A DNA stretch of 53,839 bases from Gammaproteobacteria bacterium (GCA_038924245.1 JBCKVB010000005.1:1-53839), one strand, 5' to 3'; positions 8,901 to 47,531 are shown, counted from the stretch's first letter. Program-made: numbers and translations. The notes: generated by a model not told the origin, from the letters alone.

Positions 8901-9582
8901 GATTGGTATCCTCGGCGGCAGTTTCGACCCCGTCCACTGTGGTCACTTGCGGCTGGCGCTGGAGGCGCGGCAGGAGTTGAAGCTGGACGAAGTGCGCCTG
9001 ATTCCGTGCGGGATACCGCCGCACCGCGCGCCGCCGCGGGCGAGCGCGGAGCAGCGCCTCGCCATGCTGAGCGCGGCAACGCAGGGCGAACCGGGTTTGC
9101 GCGTGGATGACCGTGAAATCATCCGCCCCGGGCCGTCCTATACCGTGGATACGCTGGCATCGCTGCGCACGGAATTTCCTGATACCCCGCTGTGCCTGAT
9201 TCTCGGACTGGACGCCTTTCTTGGGTTGCCTACCTGGCGCCGCTGGCGCGAATTGCTGGACTTCGCGCACATCGCCGTGGCGCACCGCCCCGGATGGTCG
9301 CTCCCGGCTTCCTGCCTCCCGCGACATTGGCACATCCCTGTACGGCAGGAAATGAACATTGCGGGCGAGATGGAGCAGCTCCTCGCCAGATACCGCGTAG
9401 CGGATGCATCCGAGTTGCGCGCGCACAAGGGAGGCCGGATCGTGCTCTGGGCCATGCCCGCGTTGGATATCTCTTCCTCGCGCATCCGCGCCCTGATCGC
9501 GCAAGCGAAAAGCGTGCGTTACATAGTGCCGGACGCAGTCCGTGAAATAATCCGCACCCAACATATTTACAGTTCCACCTAA
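8899..9582 (+). CDS. nadD: Nicotinate-nucleotide adenylyltransferase (with in-frame repeat insertion)
   Basis: [28 protein letters not shown]; GTG start at 8899. Confidence 0.95.
9296..9343 (-). repeat. Intragenic repeat family, 48-bp basic unit, in nadD (strand given = GGA-rich strand)
   Basis: GGTCGCTCCCGGCTTCCTGCCTCCCGCGACATTGGCACATCCCTGTAC; read as [15 protein letters not shown]. Confidence 0.9.
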
Positions 9583-9595
9583 CCAGGCAGAATTC

Positions 9596-10078
9596 ATGCA
9601 ATTAAATCATTTGAAAAAACTCGTCACTGACACGCTGGACGACAGAAAGGCGCTCGACATCAAGGTGCTCGACGTGCGCGGAATTTCCGACGTCACCGAC
9701 CTGTTCGTGATCGCCAGCGGCACCTCCAGCCGTCACGTCAAGTCGCTGGCCGCCGCGGTCGGGGAGCAGGCCAAGCAAAAAGGCTGCCGGCCTTTGGGCA
9801 TGGAAGGCGAGCGCGAGGGCGAGTGGGTATTGATAGACCTGGGCGACGTGGTGGTGCACGTCATGCTGCCGGAGACGCGCGATTTTTATAACCTGGAAAA
9901 ACTGTGGAGCGATGCGCGGCAAGTGATGATAAAAGCCACCAAGCCCAAGCCCGCGCAACCCGCCGCACATAGTAAAGCGGCGCGCGCCGAGACCAGGGCA
10001 AAGCCCAAACCCAAGACCCGACCCAAGGCCAAGACCCAGCCCAAGACCCAGCCACGGGCAAAATCGAAAAGGAGTTAA
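9596..10078 (+). CDS. rsfS: Ribosome silencing factor with Lys/Pro-rich C-terminal tail
   Basis: [36 protein letters not shown]...[10 protein letters not shown]. Confidence 0.95.
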
Positions 10079-10081
10079 GCG

Positions 10082-10549
10082 CTGCGCATTCACCTTGTCG
10101 CCGTGGGGGAGCGCATGCCCGGCTGGGTCAAAACGGGTTACCAGGAATACGCCAGGCGTTTGCCGCCGGAGTGCCGTTTAAATCTGATTGAAATTGCGCC
10201 CGGCAAGCGCGGCAAGAATGCCGACATCGCACGCGCGGTGCAGGACGAAGGCGAACGCATGCTGGCGGCTACCCCCAAGGATACGCATGTTGTCGCGCTC
10301 GACGTACACGGTACGCAATGGAGTACCGCGCAATTATCCGCGCAACTCCAGAGCTGGCTGCAAGGCGGGCGGGATGTCGCGCTGCTCATCGGCGGGCCGG
10401 AGGGCTTGGCCGAGCCTTGCCTCACGCGCGCAGCGGTCAAGTGGTCGCTATCGCCATTAACCCTCCCGCACGCGCTGGTGCGCGTGGCGGCGGCTGAGCA
10501 GCTGTATCGCGCCTGGAGTATACTGAAAAATCATCCGTATCACCGTTAA
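10082..10549 (+). CDS. rlmH: 23S rRNA m3Psi1915 methyltransferase
   Basis: [31 protein letters not shown]. The family N-terminus (M)RIHLVAVG begins at CTG 10082. Confidence 0.93.
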
Positions 10550-10584
10550 ACCACATCACCCAGGCCTCCGCATAGTCCACCACC

Positions 10585-12057: not shown

Positions 12058-13261
12058 CCACTTAAGGATGCAAGAGATGAGACACAAGCTGCGCGAGTGG
12101 GCGCAACGCGCCATGCGCCATGCGCCGTCGGCCTCACGCCACCTCGCGGGCACGTTATGGCTGACGTTCGCCGTGATGATTGTGCTCGCGGCGGCATTAT
12201 TCGCCGCCGCGAGCGTCTTGTTGCCCATGGCGGGCGAAATGCGCGCGGAGCTGGAGTTGCGCGCCAGCCGCGCGGCCGGGCAGCCGGTCAAGATCGGCAA
12301 GCTGTACGCCGACTGGTCATGGCGCGGCCCGGAGGTGCACCTGCGGGAGGTGCAGGTGCTGGACAAAAACGCCACGCGCACGGTGCTGCGCTTCGGCGGC
12401 GCGCGCATGAACGTCAATGTACTAGCCTACCTGCGCGAGCGGCGTCTGGAGGTGAGCCAGCTCACCCTTTCCGGCGCCGCGTTGGTGCTGATGCGCCGCG
12501 CCGACGGCTCCATCTGGATCGAGGGCGTGGAGAATGACGACGGCCGCCTTTTCCAGCAATGGTTGACGCAACAAGGCTATCTCGCCCTGGAGGACAGTGC
12601 AATTGACTGGATGGACGAAGTCAGCGGCGGCGTACGGCGCTTTACCGATGTCAATCTGCGTTTGCGCAGCGACGGCAAACGCCATCAGGTGAGCGTGAGT
12701 CTGGGGCCGCGCGCGGGGTTGAAACAAAATCTGCGGGTGCTGGTGGATGCGAGCGGAGACCTTACCCTGCCCGGCAGCCTGAGCGGTCAATTCCATGTGA
12801 CGGGCAATGGCATTGAGACCGCGCAATGGCTCAAGCATCTGGCCGGGTTTGAGCTGAAGAGCGGCCGGGCGGATATGGAACTGTGGGGCGAGTGGCGGGG
12901 CGAGCAGTTGAATGCGCTGCAAGGCGAGGTGGAGGCGCATGATCTGCGCCTGGCCGGACACGCGGAAGCCGCCGATCTGGCGATCAGCCGCGCAGGCGGG
13001 GAGCTGCGCTGGCAGCGCACCGCGCAGGGCTGGGACCTGGCGTTGCGGCGTTTTGTCGTGGTGCGCGACGGTGTCGCCAGCGCGCCGGCTTCGTTACGTG
13101 TGCTGCGTACGGCGGACGCCGTGGACGGTCAGTTCAGCCTGCTGCGCCTGGAAGATGTCAGCAGCGCGCTGCTGGTCAACCGCGCGGCGGATGCCAAGCT
13201 CAAGGAGTGGCTGCGCGGCGCAGAGGCGCACGGGCAGTTGCACGACGCGCGCGTGCATTTT

Positions 13262-13366
13262 AGTCGCCCCCAGCATCCTGCCCGTCTCTCCCGTGCTGTA
13301 CAGGGACGTACGAATGTCGCGGGAGGCAGGACGCCGGAAGCGACCGACACTAGTGCGTCCCTGCAC
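13262..13366. repeat. Intragenic repeat family, 105-bp nested variant, in yhdP
   Basis: Outer unit interrupted by a complete inverted 48-bp unit; read as SRPQHPARLSRAVQGRTNVAGGRTPEATDTSASLH. Confidence 0.9.
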
Positions 13367-14822
13367 GTCGCCGGCGCCGATCCGTTCGCGCCCGATGCGC
13401 GCTGGTATATCCACACCCGGTTCCGCAACCTGCGCACCTCGCCCTGGCAGTCCGTACCCGGGGTACAGGTGGCAAGCGGCGCGCTGCGGGGCGATCACAC
13501 CGCAGGCGCCCTGCTGTTGCAGGGTGTGCCGCTACGTCTGGATTTTGGCGCGGAGTTGCGCGCGCCACTTGCCTTCGATAGCGCGCGCGGCTGCGTCACC
13601 TGGCGCCAGGGCGCGCAGGGCTGGACGCTGGACAGCGACGAACTGGCGCTGAAAAATTCGGACTTCGATCTGCATCTTCGCGCCGGATTGGAATGGACGC
13701 GCGGCGAGCGTACGCCGCTGGTCAATCTGCGGGCGCAACTGCGGCGCGTCAATATCGCGGCGGTCAGAAAATATCTGCCAGCGCAACGCCTCAGCCCCAA
13801 GGCGTTGCGCTGGCTGGATCAGGCCTTGGTGAGTGGACAGATCGGCAACGTCGCGCTGCTGCTGCGCGGGCGTTTGGATGAGTTTCCGTTCGATGCCCAC
13901 AACGGCAGTTTCGAGGTGCGCGCGAGCGTGAACGATATGGTGTTCGCCTATGCACCCGGCTGGCCCTGGCTGGGTGAGACGGAGGCGGAAGTCGTGTTGC
14001 GCAACCGCGGTTTACAGATTGACGTGGCGAGCGCGAAGATTTTTAATGCGCAGGTGGTGGAGGCGCGCGCGCTGATACCGGACCTGTTCATGCGCGAACC
14101 GCAACTCACGCTACAGGGCAAGGTGCGCGGCCCAACGCCGGACGTGTTGCGTCTGCTCAAGGAGAGCCCGCTCAATAAGCGTCTCGGCCCCTATCTCGCG
14201 GACCTGAGCGCCACGGGGCAGAGCCTGTTGAATCTGGACATGCTGATTCCGATCTCGCCTGAGCCAAACCGCGTGCGGGGTACGCTGGAGTTGCGGGACA
14301 GCGTGCTGCGTATCGCGCGGGAGCTAGCCCCCCCCCATCGAGCTTAACGCCATTAACGGCACGATCAATTTTACCGAGGGCATGACGCTCAGCGGGCGCA
14401 ACATTGCCGTGAGTCTGGGCGGTCTGCAAGGACAGTTGGACATAGGCACGGAAGGCGCCCCCGGAGCGCCACGCGCCACGCTGGTCGAGCTGCGCACCCG
14501 CGCCACCCCGGCGCAGCTCATCAAACAACTGAACGCGCTGGCGCCGAACGTCAAGGCGGACTGGTTCAAAGGCCTGGAAGGCGAGACCGATTGGGTCGCC
14601 GGATTGCGCCTGTCCGAGAATGAGGGGCAAAAGATGCAGGCCACGCTGATGCTCAGCTCCTCGCTGCGCGGGGTGACGGTGCGGCTACCGGCGCCGCTCG
14701 CCAAACCGGCGGAGGAACCACTCGCGCTGCGTTTCGCCATGGACTTGGGCAAGGCGCGGGAGCGGCGCTTCACGCTGCGCTACGGCGAACGCTGGAATGG
14801 AATTTTTGAGATGACGGACGAC

Positions 14823-14870
14823 GTGCAGGGACGCACGAGTGTCGCGGGAGGCGGGACGCCGGGAGCGGCG
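14823..14870 (+). repeat. Intragenic repeat family, 48-bp unit, in yhdP
   Basis: GTGCAGGGACGCACGAGTGTCGCGGGAGGCGGGACGCCGGGAGCG; read as [15 protein letters not shown]. Confidence 0.9.
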
Positions 14871-15011
14871 GGCAAGCAGGGCTGGAGCATCAAGCGCGGC
14901 GAACTGCGTCTGGGCGGCGCCGATGCGCTGTTGCCCGCGCAGGGCCTGCGCGTCAGCGGCGAGGCCGCACACCTGGCGCTCGACCTCGACGGGTGGCGGG
15001 AGTTTTTCGAC

Positions 15012-15107
15012 GTGCAGGGACGCACTAGTGTCGCGGGAGGCACGACTCCAGGGATGGAGGAGGTAGAATCGCGTCGGGAACAGCGATCGAGGATGCCGGG
15101 AGCGACA
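15012..15107 (+). repeat. Intragenic repeat family, 96-bp variant, in yhdP
   Basis: Basic unit plus a 48-bp module; read as [32 protein letters not shown]. Confidence 0.92.
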
Positions 15108-15918
15108 ACCCGGACGCCGGGCGGCACGCGTGGGGACAGCCCGTGGCGGCTGCTGGACAGCGTGGATGTGCGGCTCGGGGTGCTGGAGCTTGCCGAACGG
15201 CGCTTTAATAATCTCAGCCTGCGCGCGCAGCGCAAGGCGCAGGGATGGGATGCCGATCTCGACGGCGCCGAGATCGCGGGCCAGGTGCAGTGGGTGCAGG
15301 GTGCCGCGCCGAGTTTAACCATGACCCTGCAACGGCTGCATTTCGCCCAACAAAGCGGCGAGCGCAAATCGGAATTTGATCCGCGCAACTGGCCGGCGCT
15401 GCATGTCAGCAGTCAAAGCGTGAAATACGGCGATGTTGATCTGGGCGGCCTCACGCTGGAGGCATCCAAACAGCCGAACGGCCTGCGCATCGAAAAATTG
15501 CAGTTGAGCTCGCCTAATCTGCAAGTACAAGGCACAGGGGAGTGGACGGTGACGGGCGACACGCAACAGTCGCGCTTGAACGCCGGCGTGGACAGCGGCG
15601 ATTTCGGCAAGGCGCTGGTCCAGCTCGGTTATGCCGAAACCGTTGCGGGCGGCAAGGCGCGCGTGGAGGTGTCGGCGCGGTGGCCTGGCGCGCCGGGCGA
15701 TTTTACCCTGGCGCGCTTAAGCGGCACACTCACGCTCAACGCCAAGCAAGGACGTTTCCTGGACATCGAGCCGGGCGCGGCGGTGCGCGTGTTCGGCCTG
15801 CTCAGCTTGCAGGCCTTGCCGCGCCGCCTCACCCTCGATTTCCGCGATCTGTTCGGCAAGGGCTTCAGCTTCGACAAGATTGAAGGCACCTTCACGCTGG
15901 ATAACGGCGACGCCTATA

Positions 15919-16249
15919 CCAATAATCTGGTCATGAATGGCCCCGCGGCGCGGATCAACGTTTCCGGGCGCACCGGCCTTGCCGCCAGGGATTACGATCA
16001 GATCGTCACCGTGACACCGGAAATCAGCGCGAGTCTGCCGCTGGCCGGGGCCTTGGGCGGTCCGGTCGGGATTGGCATCGGCACCGGCATCTACCTGTTT
16101 GAAAAGCTGTTCAAGCCGGGCATTGACGGTATCGCGCGCGTGCAATACACGGTGAAGGGTTCGTGGCAGGACCCGGTCATCGAGCCGCTCAAGTCCGGCG
16201 ACAAGACGCCGGATATACAGGCGGCGCCCGCCGGCTAAAGGGTTGCGGC
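15919..16249 (+). repeat. 331-bp direct repeat, copy 1 (yhdP 3' end)
   Basis: Identical by eye to 23207-23537. Confidence 0.95.
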
Positions 16250-22102: not shown

Positions 22103-22106
22103 CCTT

Positions 22107-22141
22107 GGAAAGCTCTGAATAAGTCCGTCCCGGACTTCTCA
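22107..22141 (+). repeat. Isolated left end of the IS5-like MITE
   Basis: GGAAAGCTCTGAATAAGTCCGTCCCGGACTTCTCA matches 5526-5559 and overlaps the stop codon of the phosphodiesterase gene. Confidence 0.8.
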
Positions 22142-23206: not shown

Positions 23207-23537
23207 CCAATAATCTGGTCATGAATGGCCCCGCGGCGCGGATCAACGTTTCCGGGCGCACCGGCCTTGCCGCCAGGGATTACGATCAGATCGTCACCGT
23301 GACACCGGAAATCAGCGCGAGTCTGCCGCTGGCCGGGGCCTTGGGCGGTCCGGTCGGGATTGGCATCGGCACCGGCATCTACCTGTTTGAAAAGCTGTTC
23401 AAGCCGGGCATTGACGGTATCGCGCGCGTGCAATACACGGTGAAGGGTTCGTGGCAGGACCCGGTCATCGAGCCGCTCAAGTCCGGCGACAAGACGCCGG
23501 ATATACAGGCGGCGCCCGCCGGCTAAAGGGTTGCGGC
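23207..23537 (+). repeat. 331-bp direct repeat, copy 2 (duplicated yhdP 3' end)
   Basis: Identical by eye to 15919-16249; explains ORF 23221-23526. Confidence 0.95.
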
Positions 23538-23638: not shown

Positions 23639-23890
23639 CCGTTCGAGGAAATCAAATGAAACATTCGTTAGTGATTGCTGCTGCTGCGCTTGCCGTGCTG
23701 TTGGCGGCCTGCTACGGTAAAGAAGAGCAACCCGCCGCGCCTGCGGCTGAAGCCCCGGCTGTCGAAGCCCCGGCTGTCGAAGCCCCGGCTGCTGAGCCGG
23801 CGCGCCCATAACTGATTTTTCATCGCCGAGCTCCTAGGCTCCAGCAACTGCCCCTTCCCAGGGGCAGTCTGGCGCGGCGGACATGGAAGC
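23639..23890 (+). pseudogene. Degenerate partial duplicate of the 5' half of the cytochrome c lipoprotein gene
   Basis: Same RBS, signal peptide and linker as ~23901-24178; stop at 23809-23811; 15-bp tandem repeats; no heme motif. Confidence 0.75.
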
Positions 23891-23917
23891 CGCTCCCGCG
23901 CCGTTCGAGGAAATCAA

Positions 23918-24433
23918 ATGAAACATTCGTTAGTGATTGCCGCTGCGCTTGCCGTGCTGTTGGCGGCCTGCGGTAAAGAAGAGCAGCCCGCTGTCCCCGC
24001 CGCTCCCGTGGAACAAGCCGCGCCCGCGGCTGAAGCCCCTACTGCCGAAGCGCCCGCCACCGAGCCTGCCGCTGAGCCTGCCGCACCTGCTCCCGCGGAA
24101 GGCGCCCCCGCCCCGAGTTCCGAGGCTCCAGCAACTGCCCCTACCCAGGGGCAGTCTGGCGCGCCGGACATGGAAGCTGGCATGGCGCTTGCCAAGAGCA
24201 GCGGTTGCTTCGCCTGCCATCAGATTGAAGTGAAACGCGTCGGCCCGACCTGGCAAGATGTGGCCAAGAAATACCAGGGCAATGCGGACGCCAGGAAAAT
24301 ACTGGTGGAGCAGATCAAGAAGGGCGGCGTTGCGGGCTGGCAGATGGGCGTGATGCCTCCGTATTCTCCGCGCGTACCCGATGCCGATATCGAAAAGCTG
24401 GCGGAATTCATCATTGCGTTGAATAAAGGCTAA
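23918..24433 (+). CDS. Lipid-anchored monoheme cytochrome c (c551/c552-like) with long Pro/Ala/Glu linker
   Basis: Lipobox LLAAC, CFACH heme motif, VGPTW, GVMPP Met ligand. Confidence 0.88.
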   Translation: MKHSLVIAAALAVLLAACGKEEQPAVPAAPVEQAAPAAEAPTAEAPATEPAAEPAAPAPAEGAPAPSSEAPATAPTQGQSGAPDMEAGMALAKSSGCFACHQIEVKRVGPTWQDVAKKYQGNADARKILVEQIKKGGVAGWQMGVMPPYSPRVPDADIEKLAEFIIALNKG

Positions 24434-29076: not shown

Positions 29077-29090
29077 ACCTGGAAACGTTA

Positions 29091-29957
29091 ATGATCCGGG
29101 CCAATACCACACGCGTCAGCCTGCAGCCCGCTTACGTGTTGCACCATCGCCCCTACCGGGACAGCAGTTTGCTGCTGGAGATATTCACGCCGGACCATGG
29201 CCGCGTGGGTTTGGTGGCGCGCGGCGCGCGCTCGCCCAAGTCGCGCCTATACGGGGTGCTGCAACCGTTTCAGCCGCTGCTCATCTCGTGGGTGGGGCGC
29301 GGCGAACTCGCCACGCTGAGCGGCGCGGAGGCGAACGGCCCGCCGCAACGCCTGCAAGGGAAAAGCGTCATCAGCGGTTTTTATATCAATGAACTGCTGC
29401 TGCGCTTGCTGCACCGCCACGATCCGCATGCCGCGCTGTTTGACGGCTACGCCCGGACCTTGCCGCTGCTGGCGCAAGCGGTCGCTCCCGGCGTCCTCGA
29501 TCGCTGTTCCCGACGCGATTCTACCTCCTCCATCCCTGGAGTCGTGCCTCCCGCGACACTAAGCCTTCCCTGGCTGGCAGAACAGCGCGCGCTACGTATC
29601 TTTGAAAAGCATTTGTTAAAAGAGATCGGTTATGCGCTGGTGCTGGGTCACGAAGTGGAAAATGGCGCGCCCATCGAGCCGGACCAGAGGTACACTTACC
29701 GGCTGGAGCAGGGGCCGGTGCGATCCGATGGGGCAGGACACGGCATCGCGCTGCACGGTGCGAGTTTGTTGTCTCTTATGAATGAACAGTTGAGCGATGA
29801 ACAAAGTCTGCGTGAGGTTAAATCGCTGATGCGCGCCGCGCTCGCCCTGTATCTCGGCGACAAGCCGTTGCAAAGCCGCGCCTTGCTGGTCAATTTACAG
29901 AAAACCTTGAACCTGCCCAGGAGCAGCATCGCAGTGCAGGCGGTTGACGCCGCATGA
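29091..29957 (+). CDS. recO: DNA repair protein RecO (with in-frame repeat insertion)
   Basis: [29 protein letters not shown]; era-recO-pdxJ synteny. Confidence 0.95.
29480..29575 (-). repeat. Intragenic repeat family, 96-bp variant, in recO
   Basis: Read as [31 protein letters not shown]. Confidence 0.92.
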
Positions 29958-30760
29958 CGGCGCGCTCATCCATTTTGCTGGGGGTCAATATTGACCACAT
30001 CGCCACGCTGCGCCAGGCGCGCGGAACGCGCTATCCTGATCCGGTACAAGCCGCCATCGAGGCCGAGCAGGCAGGCGCGGACGCGATCACGTTACACCTG
30101 CGCGAAGACCGGCGCCACATCCAGGAGCGCGACGTGGAAATGTTGCACGGCATTTTGCAGACGCGCATGAATCTGGAGATGGCGGTGACCGAGGCGATGC
30201 TGGCGTTCGCCGCGCGCATCAAACCGCGGGACTGCTGCCTGGTGCCGGAGCGGCGCGAGGAGCTGACCACCGAAGGCGGGCTGGACGTGGCGGGCCAGCC
30301 GGAACGCATCGGCGCGGCCTGCGCGCGCTTGCGGGACGCGGGTGTGCGCGTGTCGCTGTTCATTGACGCTGATAACCATCAAGTGGATGCGGCGGCGCGC
30401 GCGGGCGCACCGGTGATTGAAATCCACACCGGCCATTATGCCGATGCGGAAGACGCAGCCCTGCGTGAGCAAGAGTTGCAGCGCATCGTGCGCGCCATGG
30501 AGCATGGAAAAAATCTCGGCCTGCAAGTCAACGCCGGACATGGCTTGAATTATCACAACGTGCAGGCCATCGCGGCCTTGCCCGGTATCAGCGAACTCAA
30601 CATCGGTCACGCCATCGTGGCGCGCGCGCTGTTCACCGGGTTCGGCGCGGCGGTGCGCGAGATGAAACAGTTGCTGCGCGACGCACAGGGAAGAGCGCCA
30701 GCGAAGGGTTCAGCGATAGCGAAGGGTTCTGCTAGTGTCGCGGGAGGCAGGACGCCGTGA
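29954..30760 (+). CDS. pdxJ: Pyridoxine 5'-phosphate synthase (repeat-derived C-terminal tail)
   Basis: [35 protein letters not shown]. Confidence 0.97.
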
Positions 30761-30766
30761 GCGACC
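30683..30766 (+). repeat. Intragenic repeat family, 84-bp variant, forming the pdxJ C-terminus and stop
   Basis: Basic unit plus two 18-bp modules; GGA changed to TGA within the repeat. Confidence 0.85.
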
Positions 30767-32189: not shown

Positions 32190-32194
32190 ACACT

Positions 32195-32995
32195 ATGAAC
32201 ATTTTGGTATTCGACATCGAAACCGTCCCCGACGTGGCGGGCGGACGCCGGCTTTATGCGCTCGATGGCCTCACGGACAAACAGACCGCCGAGGCGATGT
32301 TCAACGTGCGCCGCCAGGAGACCGGCGGTTCAGATTTTCTCCGCCACCATTTACAACGCATCGTGGCGATCTCAGCGGTGCTGCGCACGCGCGATCATGT
32401 GAAGGTGTGGTCTCTGGGTGAGCCGGATTCACCTGAAAAAGAGCTGATCGAACGCTTTTTCGACGGGATTGAAAAGTACACGCCGACGCTGGTGTCCTGG
32501 AACGGCGGCGGGTTTGATTTGCCGGTGCTCAACTATCGCGCGCTGTTGCACGGCGTCGCCGCGCCGCGTTACTGGGAGACGGGCAAGGAAGACCCCGGCT
32601 TCCGCTACGATAATTATCTCAGCCGGTTTCATTGGCGCCATACCGATCTGATGGACGTGCTTTCCTCTTACCAGGCGCGCGCCACCGCCCCGCTGGATGG
32701 AATCGCCGCCCTGCTGGGCTTTCCCGGCAAGCTGGGCATGGACGGGTCGCAGGTGTGGGAGCGCTATCTGCAGGGCGAGATCGCCGCGATCCGCGATTAC
32801 TGTGAGACCGACGTGCTCAATACCTATCTCATTTACCTGCGCTTCGAACTGATACGCGGCCATTTGACGGCCGAACACTACGCAACAGAGTGTCAGCTTC
32901 TGCGCGATGTGCTGGCCAAGGAAGACAAACCCCACCTGCGCGAATTTCTTGCCGCTTGGCGGTCGCTCCCGGCGTCCTGCCTCCCGCGACACTAA
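32195..32995 (+). CDS. PolB-like 3'-5' exonuclease (DEDD family)
   Basis: VFDIETVPD, LVSWNGGGFDLPVL, HTDLMD, YCETDVLNT. Confidence 0.88.
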   Translation: MNILVFDIETVPDVAGGRRLYALDGLTDKQTAEAMFNVRRQETGGSDFLRHHLQRIVAISAVLRTRDHVKVWSLGEPDSPEKELIERFFDGIEKYTPTLVSWNGGGFDLPVLNYRALLHGVAAPRYWETGKEDPGFRYDNYLSRFHWRHTDLMDVLSSYQARATAPLDGIAALLGFPGKLGMDGSQVWERYLQGEIAAIRDYCETDVLNTYLIYLRFELIRGHLTAEHYATECQLLRDVLAKEDKPHLREFLAAWRSLPASCLPRH

Positions 32996-33008
32996 GCCAT
33001 CCATGGCT
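32961..33008 (-). repeat. Intragenic repeat family, 48-bp unit, supplying the exonuclease C-terminus and stop
   Basis: GGTCGCTCCCGGCGTCCTGCCTCCCGCGACACTAAGCCATCCATGGCT; read as [10 protein letters not shown]. Confidence 0.92.
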
Positions 33009-33036
33009 GTCGCTGATCCACGCAACCTTGCGCCTC

Positions 33037-34406: not shown

Positions 34407-34451
34407 TACTCAAGGAACCTCTGATATGTCAGAGGTTCCTTGAGTATCAAC
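34402..34451. terminator. Perfect 23-bp inverted repeat between convergent rlmD and purL, with MITE-end core
   Basis: GTTGATACTCAAGGAACCTCTGA-TATG-TCAGAGGTTCCTTGAGTATCAAC. A terminator role is inferred from position; there is no U tract. Confidence 0.6.
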
Positions 34452-37400
34452 CAATCCACTTGCGCGCGTTGCGGAACATGTGCAGCCACGGGCTCTCCTC
34501 GCCCCACTCTTCGGGATGCCAGGAGAGGGCCATCGTGCGCACCACGCGCTCCGGGTGCGGCATCATGATGGTGTAGCGCCCGTCGGGCGTGGTGAGGCCC
34601 GCGATGCCGAGCGGCGAGCCGTTGGGATTGGCGGGGTAGGTTTCGGTGGGCTGGCCATAATTATCCGCCCAGCGCAGTGCGACGATACCGGCATCGAGTG
34701 CTTGTTGGGCGCTGCCGCCGGAACGAAATTCGGCGCGGCCCTCGCCGTGCGCCACCGCGAGGGGCAGTTGCGCGCCCGCCATGTCTTGCAAGAACAGCGA
34801 GGGCGATTTCGGGATTTGCACCAGCGACAGGCGCGCCTCGAATTGCCCGGAAAGGTTGCGCGCGAACCCCGGCCAGTGCTCCGCGCCGGGGATGAGTTCA
34901 TGCAGGTGCGACATCATCTGGCAGCCGTTGCAGATGCCGAGACCAAAGCTATCCTTGCGATTAAAGAAGGCGCTGAATTCGTCGCGCGCGCGCGCGTTGA
35001 ACAAGATTGAATTGGCCCAGCCACGCCCCGCGCCGAGCACGTCGCCGTAGGAAAATCCGCCCGGCGCGGCGAGGCCCTGAAAGTCGCGCAGGGAAACGCG
35101 GCCTTCCAGGATATCGCTCATGTGCACGTCCACACAGGCGAAACCCGCGCGGTCGAACGCCCAGGCCAGCTCCACCTGGCCGTTCACGCCTTGTTCGCGC
35201 AGGATGGCGACGCGCGGGCGCACGCCTTGTTTGATATACGGCGCCGCGGCATCGTGATCCGGGTCGAAGCTGAGCTTTACGTTCAGACCGGGGTCGGCGG
35301 CATCAAGCAGGGCATCGTACTCCTGCTGCGCGCACGCCGGGTTGTCGCGCAGCGACTGCATGCGATAAGAAGTTTCCGACCAGGCGCGGTGCAAGTTCAC
35401 GCGCGTGTCTGAAAGAACCGTTTTGCCGTGGTGCGTGAATACAATGTGATCCGTGCCATTCAAGGCGCCGCACGCGTGGCTGCATTCGCCGAGTCCTGCC
35501 TGCTCCAACGCCTCAAGCACCGCCTGCTTGTCTGCCATACGCGTTTGCACCACGGCGCCGAGCTCTTCATTAAACAGCGCGCCAGTCGCTCCCGGCGTCC
35601 TCGATCGCTGTTCCCGACGCGATTCTACCTCCTCCATGCATGGAGTCGTGCCTCCCGTGACACTAAGCCGTCCCTGGCTGGCGCAAGGGCCGGGTACGAG
35701 CGTATCCAGATGCACGGTGACGCCGGCATGACCCGCGAAGGCCATCTCGCATACGGCGGTAAACAGGCCGCCGTCGGAGCGGTCGTGATAGGCGAGCAGC
35801 AGGCCTTTTTCATTGAGCGATTGAATGGCGTTAAAGAACGACTTGAGTAATTCAGCATCCGGCGCATCCGGCACGTCGCGCACCATTTGGCCATACACCT
35901 GTGCCAGCGCCGAACCGCCCAAGCGGTTTTTGCCCAGGCCCAGATCAATCACGATGAGCGCGGTCTCGCCTTGATTAGTGCGTAGTTGCGGCGTAAGCGT
36001 CTGGCGGCAATCCAGCACCGGCGCGAAGGCGCTCACGATGAGCGACAACGGCGCGGTGACGGATTTTTCCTCGCCCTGCTCGCGCCACACGGTTTTCATG
36101 GAGAGCGAATCCTTGCCCACGGGGATGGCGATGCCGAGTTGCGGGCAGAGTTGCATGGCGACGGCGTGCACGGTGTCGTACAACGCGGCGTCCTCGCCGG
36201 GGTGGCCCGCGGCGGCCATCCAGTTGGCGGAGAGCTTGATGGCGGAAATACCGGCGATGCGCGCGGCGGCGATGTTGGTGATGGCCTCGGCGACCGCCAT
36301 GCGCCCCGAAGCGGCGGGGTTGATGAGCGCGAGCGGCGCGCGTTCGCCCAGCGCCATCGCCTCGCCGGTGTGGGTGTCAAAACCGCTGCCGGTGACGCCC
36401 GCATCCGCGACCGCGACCTGCCACGGGCCCACCATTTGATCGCGCGTGACCAGGCCGCCCACCGTGCGGTCGCCGATGGTGATGAGAAAGCGCTTGTCCG
36501 CCACGGTGGGGAAACGCAGCACGCGTAGCGCGGCCTGGTGCAGGTCAATGCGCGTATCAAATAGCGGCAGCGCTGGGGTATCAGTGTGCCGCACATCGCG
36601 CAGCATTTTCGGCGGTTTGCCGAGTAGCATGGGCAGCGGCAGGTTGACCGGCTCATTATGGAAATGCGCGTCGCTCACGAGGAGTTGTTGTTCGGCGCTG
36701 ACGCTGCCCACAACGGCGTAAGGACAACGCTCGCGCGCGCACAATACCTTGAATTCATCCAGGCGTTCGGCGGACACCGCCAGCACGTAACGCTCCTGCG
36801 CCTCGTTGCTCCAAATCTGCATGGGCGACATGCCGGGATCGTCGTTCAAAATCGCGCGCAGCTCGATACGCGCTCCGCGTTCCGCGCCGTGCACCAGTTC
36901 CGGCAGCGCATTGGACAGGCCGCCCGCGCCGACATCGTGTATGGAGAGGATGGGATTGCCGTCACCCATCTGCCAGCAGCGGTCTATGACCTCTTGGCAG
37001 CGGCGCTGCATCTCGGCGTTGTCGCGCTGCACCGAGGCGAAGTCGAGCGTCTCGTCACCGCTGCCCGCTGCGATAGAAGACGCCGCGCCGCCGCCGAGGC
37101 CAATCAGCATGGCCGGCCCGCCCAGTACAATGAGCGCGCTGCCTTGCGGCAAATCATGCTTCTCCACATGCATGGGAGAAATGTTGCCCACGCCGCCCGC
37201 CAACATGATGGGCTTGAGATAGCCGCGCGACTCCATGCCCTGTTGCGCCGGGAATTGCGCCTCGAAGGTGCGGAAATAGCCGCAGATGTTGGGACGGCCG
37301 AATTCATTGTTGAACGCCGCCGCGCCTAGCGGCCCCTCCAGCATGATTTGTAGACTCGACGCGACGTGCGCCGGTTTGCCGTAATCGAATTGCTCCCACG

Positions 37401-38541
37401 GCTGCGGGGCATCGGGGATACGCAGGTGCGAGACGGAAAAGCCGCACAAACCCGCCTTGGGCTTCGCGCCGCGCCCGGTCGCGCCTTCATCGCGGATTTC
37501 GCCGCCGCTGCCGGTGGCCGCGCCAGGATAAGGCGAGATCGCGGTGGGGTGGTTGTGCGTCTCCACCTTCATCAGGATGTGCGCGTACCCCCTGTGCTGA
37601 CGATATTCGTTCTTTCCGCCTGCGGGGAAAAAGCGCGCCGTCTCGAAACCCTCGATCACCGAGGCGTTGTCTTTATACGCCGACAGGATGCCATGCGGAT
37701 TTTTTTCCGAGGTGTGGCGGATCATGGCGAACAGGGATTTTTCCCGTGGCTTGCCGTCTATGATCCAGTCGGCGTTGAAAATCTTGTGGCGGCAGTGCTC
37801 GGAATTCATCTGCGCGAACATCATCAGTTCCGCGTCGCTGGGGTTGCGCTTGAGGCGCAGGTAGTTGTCCAGCAGATAGGCGATTTCGTCCGCGCTGAGC
37901 GCGAGCCCAAGTTGCCGGTTGGCGTCCAGCAGCGCCTGTTTTCCATCGGTTAAAATATCAACAGTGGTCAGCGGCGCGGGTTGAGACTGAGAGAACAGGG
38001 CGTGCGCCGCCTTGGGGTCGCGGCACACCTGCTGCGTCATGCGGTCGTGCACGAGTGGGGCGATCAAATCAATCTCGCCCTGTTGCAGGGGCGCGGCGTT
38101 TTGCGTGGTGAAATAATAAGCCGTGCCGCGCTCGATGCGCTTGATCTTGTCCAGGCCGCACAAACGCAGGATGTCGCTCGCCTTGCTCGACCAGGGCGAG
38201 CGCGTACCGGCGCGCGGTGTCACCAGCAACGACGTGCAGGGACGCACTAGTGTCGCGGGAGGCACGACTCCAGGGATGGAGGAGGTAGAATCGCGTCGGG
38301 AACAGCGATCGAGGACGCTGGGAGCGACCGGGGGAGTTGCGACGACGGATTCGCTTGCGTGCGCCGCGAGGATTTTTACCAACGCCGCGTTTTCGTCCGG
38401 CGCGAGCGCGCCGGTCAGCTCGGCGAAATACACCCACTCGGCGCGCAGTTGTGTGATGCGCGGGGCAGCCGCCCGCATCGCGCGCAGCAGTTTGTCGAGG
38501 CGGAAACCAGACAGCGCCGCCGCGCCGCGCAGCCGTAACAT
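34447..38541 (-). CDS. purL: Phosphoribosylformylglycinamidine synthase, large type (two in-frame repeat insertions)
   Basis: [43 protein letters not shown]. Confidence 0.98.
35584..35679 (-). repeat. Intragenic repeat family, 96-bp variant, in purL
   Basis: Read as [32 protein letters not shown] just before ALFNEELG. Confidence 0.92.
38234..38329 (+). repeat. Intragenic repeat family, 96-bp variant, in the purL N-terminal domain
   Basis: Read as [32 protein letters not shown] just before LLVTPR. Confidence 0.92.
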
Positions 38542-38558: not shown

Positions 38559-39770
38559 TTATTTGAGTTGTTCGTGCAGCAGGGTCAGTATCCGGCTGGA
38601 GGTTTCCGAGTTGTCGCGCACGCCATCCTTGTTGAGCACCTCGATGCGCGTGCTGTCCGCGGTCGTCCCCAGCGACCCGCCTCCCGCGACACTAGTAGAA
38701 CCCTTCGCTGGCGCTCTTCCCTGTACGTCGTCGCTCGCCACGCTGACCAGATATTGTTCGGTCGGCGGCTTTTTGTCGTCCTTGCCCCAGAATTTCATCC
38801 TGGACATGAGGCCTTCTTTTTTCTCCTGATCCTTGAGCGGATCGGCGTAACGCACGTAGTACAGGCCGCGTGAGCGGTCACGGTCTTCCACGGTGAAGCC
38901 GATGCGATCCAGCGCGAGGCCGGTGCGGCGCCAGGCGCGTGAAAAATCCTCTTGCAGGGCGAGCGCGGCGCCGCCGTTGCCGTCTTTGGTCAGCGTGGCG
39001 CGCGGCGTTTCGGTCTCGCGCGCCAGCAGGGTCTTGGTTTTCTTTTCGTCCACGCCGAAGAACACCATCAGGTGGTTAAGCATCTCCGCCTCCAGCTCCG
39101 GGTCGGAAGGGCGCGGCTGCCAGATGGTCGAGTCGCCATGCGCCACTTCCTCCACGCCGCTGTGGCTCAAGAAAAGTTCGGTGCCGCCCGCCTCCTGGGT
39201 GCGCTCCAGGCGCACGCGGAACTTGTCGCGCGTCGCGGCGGAGTAGAGATTTTCGAACACCTTGCTCAGCACCGAGCGGATGGGATCTTTCGGAATGTCG
39301 GCGCGGTTTTCCAGCCAGTCGGTCTCCATGATGCCGATGCGTGGGTCTTCCTGCTTGATGAGATAACCGTTTTGCAGCCAGAATTCGCGCACCTTGGGCC
39401 ACCACTGATCGGGCTCGCCCTGCATCATCAGCCAGCGCTTGTTGCCGTCGCGCTCCACGCGCACGTTGTCCTGGCCGGGCAGGACATTCTCGCGCTGCGC
39501 CACTTGCGGGTCGCTGCGCTCGCCGCTGTACACGGAATAGGTCGCCGTGCCGCCGGGGCTGATGTCGGGCACGGCGAGCGTGTCGTCCACGGTGGAGCTG
39601 GTGAGGTCGGGCGGTACCTCCAGCGGCGGGAGCGAGGAGCTCTTTTTATATTCCACGCGCTTTTCCGGGTCCACCTCATCCAGCTTGGCGGTGATCGCCT
39701 TGCACCCGCCGAGCGCAGCGAGCGTTAACAACAAAAGTCCGCAATGTAACAGCCGTTTTCTAAAATGCAT
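38559..39770 (-). CDS. bamC: Outer membrane protein assembly lipoprotein BamC (with in-frame repeat insertion)
   Basis: Lipobox [42 protein letters not shown]; downstream of dapA. Confidence 0.9.
38661..38726 (-). repeat. Intragenic repeat family, 66-bp variant, in bamC
   Basis: Basic unit plus one 18-bp module; read as [22 protein letters not shown]. Confidence 0.85.
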
Positions 39771-43946: not shown

Positions 43947-43950
43947 CGCG

Positions 43951-44820: not shown

Positions 44821-44826
44821 CGGCGC

Positions 44827-45498
44827 TTGATGTTTGTCGTAGGACTCACGGGCGGCATCGGCGCGGGCAAGTCCATAGTGGCGGAGTTGTTCCGCGCGCA
44901 GGGCGTGCCGGTGCTGGACGCCGATGTCATCGCCAGGGAATTGGTGCAGAAGGGCAAGCCCGCGCTGACGCGCCTCGTGGCGCTGTTTGGGCGCGAGATA
45001 CTGGATGATAACGGCGCGCTCAATCGCGCCAGGCTACGCGCCCTGGTGTTCGGCGATGCGGCGGTCGCTCCCGGCGTCCTGCCTCCCGCGACACTGGCAC
45101 ATCCGTGTGCGGCGTGGCGCAGGCAACTGGAGGCGCTACTGCACCCCTTGATTCATGAGGAAATGCAAGTCCGCTTGACGCAACTCAAGACGCCCTACTG
45201 TATCGTGTGCATACCTTTACTGGTCGAGACCGGGTGGACGGCCAGCGTGCAGCGCGTACTGGTGATAGATGCCCCGGAGGAGCTGCGCCGCCGCCGCGTC
45301 GTGGCGCGTGATGGTTTGAGCGCGGCGGAGTTCAACGCCATCCTGGCCGCCCAGGCCGGCCGTGACGAGCGGCTCGCCGCGGCGGACGACGTGATCGTCA
45401 ATGATGGCGGACGTGATATGCTCAAGCAGCGGGTAGGCGAGCTGCACCGCCACTATTCGCAACTGGCGGCCGCCATCTCCACCTCCGGCAAAGTATAA
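44827..45498 (+). CDS. coaE: Dephospho-CoA kinase (with in-frame repeat insertion)
   Basis: VGLTGGIGAGKS, DADVIAR, LLHPLI, IPLLVE. Confidence 0.95.
   Translation: MMFVVGLTGGIGAGKSIVAELFRAQGVPVLDADVIARELVQKGKPALTRLVALFGREILDDNGALNRARLRALVFGDAAVAPGVLPPATLAHPCAAWRRQLEALLHPLIHEEMQVRLTQLKTPYCIVCIPLLVETGWTASVQRVLVIDAPEELRRRRVVARDGLSAAEFNAILAAQAGRDERLAAADDVIVNDGGRDMLKQRVGELHRHYSQLAAAISTSGKV
45063..45110 (-). repeat. Intragenic repeat family, 48-bp unit, in coaE
   Basis: Read as [16 protein letters not shown]. Confidence 0.92.
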
Positions 45499-45535
45499 TG
45501 ACGACAGCCATGACACATCTTACAGAGACATTTGA

Positions 45536-46303
45536 GTGATCGAGCAGGTTTTCTATGAACAACCGCTGAGCGAGCGCATACGCGCCTTTCTGCGTCTGGA
45601 GCTGTTGTTTCTTCAAGCCAATCACACCCTACTCGGCGCCAGCCCGTTGGACAGCCGCGTTACTCTTTCCACGCTGTTTGAGATTCTCAACGTCATGGGC
45701 CGCGCCGACCTCAAGGGGGAGATGTTAAAGGAGCTGGAACGGCACGGCGCCGCGCTCACCCGTCTGGAGCAGGTGCCGGAGGTGGATCAACAGCGGCTCA
45801 ATCAAATACTCGATCAACTGGATGCGCAAGTAGACCGCCTGCACGCCGTCGAAGGCCAGCTTGGCCAGACATTGCGCCAGAATGAATTTATTAACAGCAT
45901 CCGGCAGCGCACCAGCATTCCCGGCGGCACCTGTGATTTTGATCTGCCGGCCTATCATTTCTGGCTGGAGCGCCCGGTGGCGGAACGCCTGCGTGATTTA
46001 CAGGAGTGGTTGAATACTTTGGACCCGGTGCGCAGCGCCGTAGCGTTGATATTGAGCCTGATCCGCGAAAGCGCCGCACCGAGCCGGGAGCTCGCGTGCG
46101 CGGGCTTCCTGCAAAAATCGCTGGATGCGGATATTCCCTGTCAACTGGTGCGCGTCGGTGTGCCGCTCACGCTGCCTTACTATGCCGAAATCAGCGGCGG
46201 CAAACACCGCATCACGGTGCGTTTCATGGAGTACGTCAAGGATGGCCGCGCCGCGCAGGCCGCGCAAGATGTGGAGTTTGGTCTGTACTGTTGCCTGATA
46301 TAA
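45536..46303 (+). CDS. zapD: Cell division protein ZapD
   Basis: YEQPLSERIRAFLRLE, IPGGTCDFDLP, EISGGKHR; follows coaE. Confidence 0.93.
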   Translation: MIEQVFYEQPLSERIRAFLRLELLFLQANHTLLGASPLDSRVTLSTLFEILNVMGRADLKGEMLKELERHGAALTRLEQVPEVDQQRLNQILDQLDAQVDRLHAVEGQLGQTLRQNEFINSIRQRTSIPGGTCDFDLPAYHFWLERPVAERLRDLQEWLNTLDPVRSAVALILSLIRESAAPSRELACAGFLQKSLDADIPCQLVRVGVPLTLPYYAEISGGKHRITVRFMEYVKDGRAAQAAQDVEFGLYCCLI

Positions 46304-46304
46304 A

Positions 46305-46331
46305 GGAACCTCTAACTTAATCAGAGGTTCC
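46305..46331. repeat. Collapsed MITE (two ends only) between convergent zapD and Nudix genes
   Basis: GGAACCTCT-AACTTAATC-AGAGGTTCC; encodes the final GNL* of the Nudix gene. Confidence 0.7.
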
Positions 46332-47412
46332 CCAGTATCCGCGCGGCCACCTCTTCCGGCTGAGGCGCATCCCATAGCGCGCTACGCACGGCGATGCCTT
46401 GCGCGCCGTGCCGGAAGGCGAGCGCCAGGTGTTCCGCTTGCGCCAGCCAGGGACGGCTTAGTGTCGGTCGCTTCCGGCGTCCTGCCTCCCGCGACATTCG
46501 TACGTCCCTGTACAGCACGGGAGAGACGGGCGGGACGCCGGGAGCGACCATCCCGCCCAAGGCATAAACCGGCAGCGTGGCGAGTTCCGTCAAACGTTGC
46601 AGGCCTTGCCAGCCGAGCGCTACGGCGCCGGGATGGGTAGGCGTGGGGAGCACTGGGGCCACCACCGCGAAGTCGGCGTGGATGCGCATCGCGTGTTCAA
46701 GCTCCGCCTGGTTGTGACACGAGGCCGCTACCCAATGACGCTCACCGAGCGGACGCCGGTCCAGCTCCAGCAGGCGTGCGCCGGTCAGATGCACGCCGTG
46801 CGCCCCGATCTCATTAACCAGCGCGGGCGCGGCGTTGAGCAAAAGCCGTGCGTCATAAGGCGCGCACAATTCGAGCGCTTGTTGCACCAGTTTCCGGTAA
46901 TGTTTTTCATCCAGGGTTTTGGCGCGCAACTGAATCAGGCGCACACCGCCCTGGAGGCAGCGTTCCAGCCGGTCCAGAAAGGCCCTGTCGTCCTGTTCCG
47001 GTTCGCCGGTAATAAGATAGAGCACCGGCAGCCGCACGGCGTTTATGATGGGCAGGTTGGCGGCGGGATAATCCCGTTGCGATAGCTTGTCTTGCGCCAC
47101 CCATTCGATGCGTTGGCCTTCCCTGGAGTGCGGCTCACCGAGAAACTGATCCACGCGCCACACATCAAGCAAAACAGATTTATCCGGATAATGATGCGGA
47201 ATACGTATCAGGGGACGGGCGCGCGTGATGGTGATGCCAAGCTCTTCATGCAGCTCGCGCTTGAGCGCCTCCAGCACCTGCTCTGTATCTTCCACCTTGC
47301 CGCCGGGAAATTCCCACAGCCCGCCTTGATGTTTGTGCGCGGGACGCAGCGCAAGCAACACCTCGCCACGCCGGTTGAAGATGGCCGCCGCCGCGACGTG
47401 CTGATAGCTCAC
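46321..47412 (-). CDS. MutT-like Nudix hydrolase fused to a thiamine-phosphate-synthase-like domain (with in-frame repeat insertion)
   Basis: HQGGLWEFPGGKVE..ALKRELHEELGI Nudix box; IQLRAK, GVHL, ASCH, PVYALGG. Confidence 0.9.
   Translation of the reverse strand: MSYQHVAAAAIFNRRGEVLLALRPAHKHQGGLWEFPGGKVEDTEQVLEALKRELHEELGITITRARPLIRIPHHYPDKSVLLDVWRVDQFLGEPHSREGQRIEWVAQDKLSQRDYPAANLPIINAVRLPVLYLITGEPEQDDRAFLDRLERCLQGGVRLIQLRAKTLDEKHYRKLVQQALELCAPYDARLLLNAAPALVNEIGAHGVHLTGARLLELDRRPLGERHWVAASCHNQAELEHAMRIHADFAVVAPVLPTPTHPGAVALGWQGLQRLTELATLPVYALGGMVAPGVPPVSPVLYRDVRMSREAGRRKRPTLSRPWLAQAEHLALAFRHGAQGIAVRSALWDAPQPEEVAARILGNL
46445..46549. repeat. Intragenic repeat family, 105-bp nested variant, in the Nudix/ThiE gene
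   Basis: Read as VAPGVPPVSPVLYRDVRMSREAGRRKRPTLSRPW. Confidence 0.92.
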
Positions 47413-47426
47413 CTGCTGTTTACGCC

Positions 47427-47531
47427 GTACACGGATGTGTCAGTGTCGGTCGCTTCCGGCGTCCTGCCTCCCGCGACATTCGTACGTCCCTGTACAGCAC
47501 GGGAGAGACGGGCAGGACGCCGGGAGCGACC
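47427..47531. repeat. Repeat family, 105-bp nested variant, intergenic between argJ and the Nudix gene
   Basis: Near-identical to 46445-46549 except for the terminal hairpin stem. Confidence 0.92.

Follow-up and report, generated by a model that had tools for sequence, protein, structure and literature searches.

We report that the 53,839-nt contig JBCKVB010000005.1 of a Gammaproteobacteria bacterium (GCA_038924245.1), analysed here over its whole length and referred to as the window, carries 13 copies of a repeat that most probably represents a family of very small non-autonomous mobile DNA elements, inserted recently and in-frame into many essential genes. The basic unit is 51 nt or 17 codons long and consists of two hairpins. 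Every one of the 13 copies is missing from the orthologous position in related genomes. All lengths of the element are multiples of three and stop codons are few, by which host genes would survive an insertion through predicted read-through of the element as 17-36 extra residues. Insertion is clean, in either orientation and usually just 5' of C(R), and would depend on a trans-acting enzyme that recognizes the two hairpin ends and makes no duplication. Selection would then retain copies in loops, inter-domain linkers and termini of the host proteins and would favour a sense frame rich in Gly, Ala, Thr and Pro.

Definition of the repeat family

The source genome (G000) is a draft of 1,380,963 bases in 78 contigs with an estimated completeness of 82.6% and 59.7% G+C, of which the window is one entire contig (C5). 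Forty of the 48 places with a 12-nt core served to build an nhmmer model; one of these 48, on contig C18, is an unrelated hairpin. The model returned 67 matches at E ≤ 1 and 54 at E < 1e-4 in these 1.38 Mb, with 13 of the 54 in the window, and a repeat search of the window tied all 13 places together through direct families D2, D3, D6, D8 and D9 and inverted pairs I1-I25. As the reversed pattern of the 29-mer core, used as a control, gave no match in any genome searched, chance does not explain the repeat family. The initial annotation, which was made from the sequence of the window, had described a 48-bp core at 13 loci. The family is indeed present at all 13, five times on the plus and eight times on the minus strand. 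The literal 48-mer, however, is a consensus only and has no match on either strand with up to three mismatches, and the starts given for the eight minus-strand copies are those of the reverse complement. No Rfam family reached its gathering score in the window, where permissive E-values yielded only microRNA-like hairpin noise.

Empty sites and turnover

Both flanks of every window copy were located in syntenic regions of three congeners (G001-G003, about 80-88% nucleotide identity in the flanks) and of members of two further genera (G004, G007). None of the 43 site-by-genome comparisons, which cover all 13 window copies, found the element at the same position in a relative. The orthologous sites are empty, and the copies are thus lineage-specific insertions and not ancestral sequence, in agreement with the mobility proposed in the initial annotation. 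The gaps in the relatives measure 51, 108, 51, 99, 99, 87, 99, 96, 69, 51, and 108 nt, equivalent to 17-36 amino acids. The relatives hold 17-34 core matches elsewhere in their own genomes. Two of those in G001 lie in the block that is syntenic with the window, where none of the 13 window copies occurs; in its bamC, G001 has a 51-nt copy of its own 15 nt from the site of the G000 copy. Likewise, G004 possesses its own basic unit in the argJ-nudix spacer.

Comparison of a CheA-like gene between G007 and G014 (91% amino acid identity) revealed several insertions common to both and others that are private. One shared site (loci L226 and L229) holds 69 nt in G007 and 51 nt in G014, which indicates that the 18-nt extension of hairpin A (see below) can arise or be lost in place. 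Gain and loss in sister species amount to a quick turnover.

The 51-nt unit, its variants and its ends

The consensus of the unit is 5'-Y-GMC-GYRC-AGGGAY-GYRC-TAGT-GTCGC-GGGA-GGC-AGGAY-GCC-GGGA-GCGAC-3'. Module A forms a hairpin with a 4-bp stem and the 6-nt loop AGGGAY and is followed by TAGT. Module B, which extends from GTCGC to the 3' end, has a 5-bp and a 3-bp stem, separated by a symmetric 4x4 internal loop, and ends in a 5-nt apical loop. Variants of 69, 87, 99, and 108 nt, every length divisible by three, are built on this plan. Hairpin A is lengthened by 18 or 36 nt in the 69- and 87-nt forms, the 99-nt form has a 48-nt sister element in the apical loop of hairpin B, and in the 108-nt composite a plus unit interrupts a minus unit at CCCG^CGAC and 6 nt are added. 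Another variant, on contigs C11 and C25, has a module B with 18 extra nt. Across all gathered sequence, module B was 29 nt long in 181 cases, 77 nt in seven and 80 nt in two, and the differences are again multiples of three.

The 80-nt module B contains a complete reversed 51-nt unit in the loop of hairpin B, between GGGAGG and CAGGAT of another copy, and neither junction can be slid. This nested copy therefore defines the mobile unit as Y-GMC...GAGCGAC, 51 nt, inserted with no duplication and no loss. The junctions at bamC (in G001), pdxJ, coaE, nadD and yhdP_b are compatible with the ends so defined. In the nested copy and at these five junctions, the ends YGMCG... and ...GCGAC display neither terminal inverted repeats nor a target-site duplication. 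Repeats of 3-7 nt at pdxJ and coaE were considered as target duplications and rejected; they represent junction microhomology, as no co-variation links the 5' triplet (GAC, GCC, GAT) to the 3' GAC. The base 3' of the element is C at nine of 12 window sites and in 77% of 133 copies, and upstream positions are variable (at -1: C 63%, T 23%). The flank logo possibly reflects codon periodicity in part, so that no target motif is claimed beyond C(R). In G000, the 99-nt form recurs six times and the 108-nt form four times. This recurrence of composites and loop-expanded units as a whole argues that only the outer ends are recognized, and their propagation as units is the reason to propose an end-recognizing enzyme that acts in trans.

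At two loci (L134, 6866-6928; L142, 3369-3431) of one large metagenome-assembled genome (MAG), a longer palindrome encloses the 51-nt unit in its loop, one pair of arms being TTGGCAGAGGGGC...GCCCCTTCTGCCAA and the other related to it. Here, the unit was either inserted into hairpin loops or is part of a larger composite repeat.

The structure of hairpin A is under selection, as it covaries in an alignment of 95 copies from many genomes. Pair 12-23 is UA in 56 copies, CG in 32 and GC in three, and pair 13-22 is AU in 60, GC in 15 and CG in eight. We counted 72 double-changed cells as compared to 21.1 +/- 3.6 in shuffled alignments, a number that none of 500 shuffles attained, which is not to be taken as a probability since the aligned copies are related. 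Pairing, 93% in hairpin A, fell to 18-49% when the partner columns were slid. Covariation is no guide to module B, because most loci were picked with its exact 29-mer.

Host genes and reading frames

We assigned the 54 G000 copies to classes of our own by combining NCBIfam and Pfam matches with the place of the copy in the spanning open reading frame (ORF). Gene identities derive from these two databases; a home-made codon log-likelihood model, poor at separating the antisense frame, served ORF choice only. Thirty-one copies are internal to an identified gene, seven form C-terminal tails, nine lie in the first ~50 codons upstream of the first domain (ambiguous between N-terminal extension and 5' leader), five are intergenic, and two have no clear class. 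Internal hosts are NadD, YhdP (three copies), RecO, PurL (two), a BamC-like protein, CoaE, Nudix/ThiE, RuvX, PurD, PurH, Slt, LipB, GatB, PriA, PolA, PheT, an RsmD-like protein, an ABC permease, ValS, sulfite reductase, UbiE (two), AspS, UvrC, a DAO oxidase, IleS, and the DUF484 and DUF1015 proteins. C-terminal tails occur in PdxJ, the DNA_pol_B_exo2 protein, PurN, Dus, LipB and two unnamed proteins. The hosts thus include four aminoacyl-tRNA synthetases, Pol I, PriA and five enzymes of purine synthesis. The initial annotation had placed ten window copies in ORFs (NadD to Nudix/ThiE in the above list), two at C-termini and one between genes, in both orientations and with the frame kept even in essential enzymes, all of which we could confirm; the two C-termini are those of PdxJ and the DNA_pol_B_exo2 protein, and the intergenic copy lies in the argJ-nudix spacer. 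By a cruder rule, which requires a longest spanning ORF of at least 200 amino acids and at least 40 codons on each side of the copy, 31 of 51 G000 copies and 91 of 133 copies of other genomes are situated within long ORFs. The densest clusters in relatives are found in linker-rich proteins, i.e., CsoS2, AddA/B-like and CheA-like proteins and a P-type ATPase.

The consensus has stop codons in one forward and one reverse frame only, both from the palindromic CTAG. Frame F1 is used by 12 copies in G000 and 55 in other genomes, F2 by seven and five, F3 by one and none, R1 by four and 12, R2 by seven and 18, and R3 by none and one, yet the heuristic behind these counts is noisy, as the nadD copy is in R3 when read by hand, at odds with the count of zero for R3 in G000. 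R3 is the reverse frame usually interrupted by TAG, a stop that this copy escapes through CAAT in place of TAGT. Overall, F1, whose peptide is rich in Gly, Ala, Thr and Pro, accounts for 67 of the 122 copies in long ORFs and sense orientation for 80. The excess of F1 over the approximately one quarter that a neutral filter with four open frames would leave suggests selection on the peptide or the RNA, or an insertion bias.

The initial annotation expected the inserts to map to surface loops, and AlphaFold models of two hosts are consistent with this. In the predicted CoaE structure (mean predicted local distance difference test score, pLDDT, 84.7), insert residues 78-93 are modelled as coil with pLDDT < 50 between helices 67-75 and 94-119. 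In that of NadD (mean pLDDT 72.7), insert 156-166 would be a low-pLDDT coil between a strand and a helix. The underlying alignments are shallow and gapped at the insert, and low confidence at the insert is thus partly expected.

Distribution beyond the source genome

The element was described initially from one gammaproteobacterium. It is present there and not confined to it, as it occurs throughout a whole uncultured order and sporadically in other Proteobacteria. Of the 20 genomes of the order, which has this family as its only one, 17 contain the 29-mer of module B (up to one mismatch), with 1 to 91 copies each. Fifteen of them have more than one match, and their core matches (up to one mismatch) number about 4 to 91 per 1-2.4 Mb genome. 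An even, class-wide sample of 401 genomes at least 90% complete contained the exact 29-mer in ten, four in this family and six outside with one or two copies each. GTDB species representatives harbour at least 114 matching stretches; those listed are mostly Gammaproteobacteria MAGs and a few isolates, with Thiohalophilus, Sedimenticola, Acidiferrobacterales and Thiohalomonadales among the labels.

The longest ORF over the element was scanned against Pfam for ten loci of isolates or distant MAGs. In four, from Nitrosomonas eutropha, Halomonas casei, Sedimenticola hydrogenitrophicus and Ca. Endobugula, the host is a HsdM-type methylase, with at least two different insertion sites and frame F1 throughout. 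One locus (Photobacterium) is a Mu GemA gene and the remaining five had no Pfam match. A diverged copy (83.6% identity, locus L251 1501-1554, with hairpin A as GGAC/GTCC) lies within the annotated DNA primase coding sequence of the finished 11-kb plasmid NZ_CP072857.1 of the enterobacterial isolate Lonsdalea populi. Searches for vehicles gave no match in IMG/VR viral contigs, none in phage records and this one plasmid. Outside the order, the scattered copies have plausibly travelled as cargo of genes that move horizontally. Their presence in isolates and on a finished plasmid shows that assembly of this genome did not produce the element.

Public contigs that match the window are short and break at the repeats, with each run covering at most 0.20 of the sampled words, and the uncovered parts are uninformative; no RNA run was listed among the matches. 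Several short contigs of other runs nevertheless cross element-flank junctions, e.g., 29013-29497, 35617-36143 and 47115-47448, and one of the runs with such contigs may be the source sample. At purL_a, one public contig (X4) has 17 other letters instead of 35583-35698. A metagenome scan with YhdP retrieved only relatives of 29-43% identity and thus no strain-level empty alleles.

A possible connection to CsrA

The consensus of CsrA ligands obtained by systematic evolution of ligands by exponential enrichment (SELEX) is RUACARGGAUGU, in which ACA and GGA do not vary and the GGA lies in the loop of a hairpin (PMC4347634). The commonest hairpin A, GUAC-AGGGAU-GUAC, equals this consensus. Among the 95 aligned copies, 16 match it perfectly, 35 with at most one and 66 with at most two mismatches, and the complementary strand has three to seven mismatches at best. 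GGA is kept in 89 of the 95 copies, and the loop of hairpin B, CAGGAYG, follows ~25 nt away. Judged by these motifs, the element could be a mobile CsrA-binding module that supplies genome-wide CsrA targets or decoys in place of missing sponge RNAs of the CsrB/RsmZ type, which we regard as distinctly unlikely. If true, dozens of housekeeping mRNAs would be coupled to the Csr system in one uncultured order. CsrB/RsmZ-type RNAs similarly have several GGA motifs in hairpin loops. They differ in that the present family has no Rfam CsrB/RsmZ match and its copies are dispersed, mostly coding and in both orientations.

At C3:31074-31218 (L245 775-919), a 51-nt and an 87-nt unit form an intergenic tandem array. 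The 8-nt direct repeat GCGTCATT lies on both sides of the array, and a T-run comes after it. The array may represent a gene for a small RNA or the 3' terminus of a transcript.

Candidate mobilizing enzymes

We ruled out several enzymes and routes as the general mechanism of mobility. Reverse transcription is ruled out, with RVT_1 in one of 20 genomes of the order, as is IS110, which is present in six of the 20 and absent from the 90-copy genome G007. Classical transposition as a miniature inverted-repeat transposable element (MITE) is likewise ruled out, as there are no terminal inverted repeats and no duplication. Y1_Tnp genes were found in 14 of the 20 genomes and represent the sole broadly present candidate. 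A single-strand transposase of the Y1/HUH type is the least bad candidate for the mobilizer, and a doubtful one. IS200/IS605 elements have hairpin ends, create no target duplication, insert 3' of a fixed tetra- or pentanucleotide, and show a replication-linked orientation bias. One Y1_Tnp gene of G000 (C14:614-1654, L184) encodes a 333-amino-acid open frame with a DnaA-C-like tail and is flanked by inverted repeats of 27 nt with 96% complementarity. Gene and repeats form a small mobile element of their own, whose sequence is unrelated to the 51-nt family.

Alternative explanations

It is extremely improbable that the relatives lost segments which were present ancestrally, or that the segments are artefacts of assembling or binning a MAG. 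The fragmentation and incompleteness of the G000 draft, the match of the window to only short, repeat-broken public contigs, and the retention of 18 nt resembling one arm of the element by G003 at yhdP_a could be cited in favour. Parsimony argues otherwise, as each of the 13 copies is absent from as many as five relatives, drawn from three genera, and the gaps are whole units. Moreover, the same family occupies different genes in the relatives, copies lie within genes of cultured isolates and of the finished plasmid, and the short contigs of other runs span element-flank junctions. Very little probability also attaches to the proposal that the inserted peptide itself is selected, as linker, tag or modification site, and is not a by-product of selfish DNA. 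The dominance of frame F1 among copies in long ORFs and its occurrence in all four hsdM insertions looked at would suit this proposal, whereas the use of five of six frames in G000, encoding unrelated peptides, the maintenance of the same DNA sequence in intergenic and 5'-proximal copies, and a conservation that tracks hairpin pairing and not codon position speak against it. The inserts are, in addition, modelled as disordered coils and the host proteins are functionally unrelated. Retention of the segments as RNA, i.e., as a putative double CsrA-binding module that ties host genes to Csr or titrates CsrA, is unlikely as well; mobility would then serve, or be tolerated because of, the CsrA function. 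Besides the match of hairpin A with GGA in its loop, this alternative could draw on further GGGA motifs in every variant module, on the finding of a single csrA in every one of the four relatives that were searched (completeness of 95% or more), and on the lack of any CsrB match at E ≤ 1 in five genomes, which yielded only sub-threshold RsmZ matches. It could further draw on the sense orientation of 80 of 122 genic copies, the T-run at the end of the C3 array and, in G000, a copy on C8 that precedes a strong terminator-like hairpin. However, the motif match was made post hoc, four GGA per unit are equalled by 10% of shuffles, about a third of the genic copies are antisense so that the mRNA carries the complement, and the sense bias would be explained equally by selection on the peptide. 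A terminator scan of the C3 array found none by the rules of the scan, and csrA was not found in the 82.6% complete G000.

A further alternative is a strict repetitive extragenic palindromic (REP) sequence, made and moved by a dedicated, vertically inherited REP-associated tyrosine transposase (RAYT), to which we give a small chance. The unit is built of hairpins and makes no target duplication, Y1_Tnp is widespread in the order, and its count correlates weakly and positively by rank with copy number. Intragenic REPs have been described, many of them in replication and repair genes (PMC3733652), and PolA, PriA, UvrC, RecO and RuvX are hosts in the present case. The two G000 Y1 proteins tested, of three in all, however, score 66 and 71 bits on the RayT model NF047646 (cut-off 80), the GTAG tag is absent, stem and loop sizes are unlike those of the described GTAG and CGTC families (PMC3733652), and most copies are genic and not extragenic. 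The remaining objections to a RAYT concern the Y1_Tnp genes and also weigh against our preferred reading of a non-autonomous mobile element. None of eight Y1_Tnp loci has a copy within ~1.5 kb (51-nt model, E ≤ 10), and one is flanked by the unrelated 27-nt inverted repeats on C14. Two nearly complete genomes with copies, G001 (98% complete, 17 copies) and G013 (97%, 15 copies), have no Y1_Tnp. Against the preferred reading also stands that the correlation of copy number with Y1 count is weak (Spearman 0.45) and stems from 20 related, non-independent genomes. Several other points likewise count against the mobile-element interpretation. No mobilizer was found by searches for reverse transcriptase, IS110 and Y1_Tnp, with resolvase, TnpB and DDE enzymes not searched; in this respect, and in the lack of a target duplication at the nested copy, our results are in line with the initial annotation. 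Despite a positive GC skew in 24 of 26 bins, the window shows no strand bias, unlike IS200/IS605. Predicted folds are not unusually stable as compared to shuffles (z from +0.97 to -1.08), which leaves covariation to carry the case for structure, and the invariance of module B across taxa is partly forced by the choice of most loci through its exact 29-mer. Finally, G003 retains at yhdP_a 18 nt that resemble the left arm of the composite, and this site may be older and partly deleted.

Features of the window

Table 1. Copies of the repeat family in the window, their form and their absence from related genomes
Copy	Position	Strand	Form	Location	Absence from relatives
nadD	9297..9347	-	51-nt basic unit	within ORF 8854-9582 (+)	51-nt gap in G001-G004
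yhdP_a	13262..13369	+	108-nt composite, plus unit nested in minus unit, 6 extra nt		108 nt missing in G001, 90 nt in G003
yhdP_b	14819..14869	+	51-nt basic unit	C-terminal ORF 14382-16238 (+)	gap of 51 nt in G002, 45 nt in G003
yhdP_c	15008..15106	+	99-nt variant, 48-nt sister element in hairpin B loop		99 nt missing in G001 and G002, 98 nt in G003
recO	29481..29579	-	99-nt variant	within ORF 29091-29957 (+)	missing in G001, G003, G004
pdxJ end	30679..30765	+	87-nt variant (hairpin A +36 nt)	pdxJ-acpS junction	87-nt gap in G001, G003, G004, G007
DNA_pol_B_exo2 tail	32962..33012	-	51-nt unit	C-terminal tail, ORF 32183-32995 (+)	missing in G001, G003, G004, G007
purL_a	35585..35683	-	99-nt variant	within ORF 34447-38541 (-)	99-nt gap in G001, G002, G003, G007
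purL_b	38230..38328	+	99-nt variant	antisense to purL	net 96-nt gap in G001-G003
bamC	38662..38730	-	69-nt variant (hairpin A +18 nt)	within BamC-like ORF 38559-39770 (-)	69-nt gap in G002-G004
coaE	45064..45114	-	51-nt basic unit	within ORF 44827-45498 (+)	17-amino-acid gap in five orthologues
nudix	46442..46549	-	108-nt composite	within Nudix/ThiE fusion ORF 46321-47412 (-)	108 nt missing in G001, G002
argJ-nudix spacer	47424..47531	-	108-nt composite	fills spacer from argJ stop (47535) to nudix start (47412)	missing in G001, G002, G007

The copy at the end of pdxJ provides the C-terminus of PdxJ together with the stop codon, and the empty site lies between CTGCG and CGAGG. The yhdP gene is read as two ORFs (12068-14347 and 14382-16238) owing to C7 versus C6 in G001 at window 14325-14340. 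The repeats are not the cause of this split; either the draft has a homopolymer error here or the frameshift is genuine.

Other repeated sequences were noted in the window. An exact 331-nt duplicate of the yhdP 3' end and downstream sequence (15919-16249 and 23207-23537, 7.3 kb apart) arose either by recent segmental duplication or as an artefact of assembly. At 23639-24200, two short paralogous ORFs in tandem start with MKHSLVIAA, contain 15-nt tandem repeats (D4, D10, D13, D16) and look like duplicated lipoprotein-like genes. A second small repeat of 43 nt (86% identical, palindrome AAGTCCA...TGGACTT) occurs at 5517-5559 and 22099-22141, where two long ORFs have their 3' ends. The 51-nt unit adjoins this AAGTCCA...TGGACTT motif in another genome (locus L088, ~2011-2073).

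Significance and comparison with known systems

The kind of element described here is already known. For this particular family, we could not find a published description in the searchable open literature (core words, 51-bp in-frame repeat), a scope that leaves aside subscription journals and supplements, and a related family is possibly among the intragenic REPs of Additional file 3 of PMC3733652. The initial annotation had cited Rickettsia as the coding exception among palindromic repeats, which needs correction, as in-frame palindromic repeats also exist as intragenic REPs (PMC3733652) and Coxiella QMITEs (PMC5896051). A 2024 review of MITEs still treats the Rickettsia palindromic elements (RPEs) as an exceptional case and only speculates on the same elsewhere (PMC10969869). 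In-frame colonization of essential genes by a selfish repeat has so far been a matter mainly of Rickettsia, and the present family would be a second, cleaner system. It offers a natural insertion scanning of permissive loops and lets the gain of protein segments be watched. For annotators of MAGs it is a caution that 'extra loops' may be mobile DNA. The enzyme that inserts 51 nt without a duplication may be of a new type, and a regulatory role can be tested directly, given that the CsrA consensus is matched exactly.

With elements derived from IS200/IS605, the family shares hairpin ends, the lack of a target duplication, composites moved via their outer ends, and the presence of Y1_Tnp in most genomes of the order. 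It differs by having no conserved 5' tetranucleotide, no strand bias in the window and no Y1 gene beside a copy. MITEs such as Coxiella QMITE1/2, Correia and ERIC are non-autonomous too and sometimes extend or interrupt ORFs in frame (PMC5896051, PMC10969869). Yet they are 100-400 bp long, with terminal inverted repeats and direct repeats of 2-11 nt (PMC5896051), in contrast to 51 nt with neither in the present case.

Closer parallels exist with two groups of palindromic repeats. RPEs are small hairpin repeats without a transposase of their own. They are found between genes and, in-frame, in unrelated housekeeping genes of a small genome, where the peptide that they add is predicted to fit the fold (PMC10969869, PMC3733652). 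They measure ~100-150 nt (PMC10969869) as opposed to 51 nt, and Rickettsia as host contrasts with the free-living-type Gammaproteobacteria MAGs of this study; the two are set apart here by size and host. Modular variants in multiples of three, frequent self-nesting, a range over several orders and partly hsdM as host are features of the 51-nt family. Intragenic REPs (Di Nocera et al. 2013, PMC3733652) are also short palindromes that occur as singletons, dimers and clusters, with stem covariation in sub-families and a minority to majority of genic copies, notably in replication and repair genes; those of the CGTC class have no dedicated transposase (PMC3733652). In the 51-nt family, however, each unit has two different hairpins, the stem is 4 bp and the loop 6 nt long, and there is no GTAG. 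As to the CGTC tag, GTC comes after hairpin A on the minus strand and gives CGTC in copies starting GAC (66% A at the second position), but CGTC families have stems of 8-9 bp and loops of 4-5 nt (PMC3733652). REPs are mostly intergenic (PMC3733652), whereas 38 of the 54 G000 copies were classed within coding sequence. Unlike in REP/RAYT systems, there is no REPtron, and RayT scores are sub-threshold. By these membership features, the family falls outside the RPEs (by size and taxon), the REP/RAYT systems and the MITEs. In the way it works, it is like the RPEs and the intragenic REPs.

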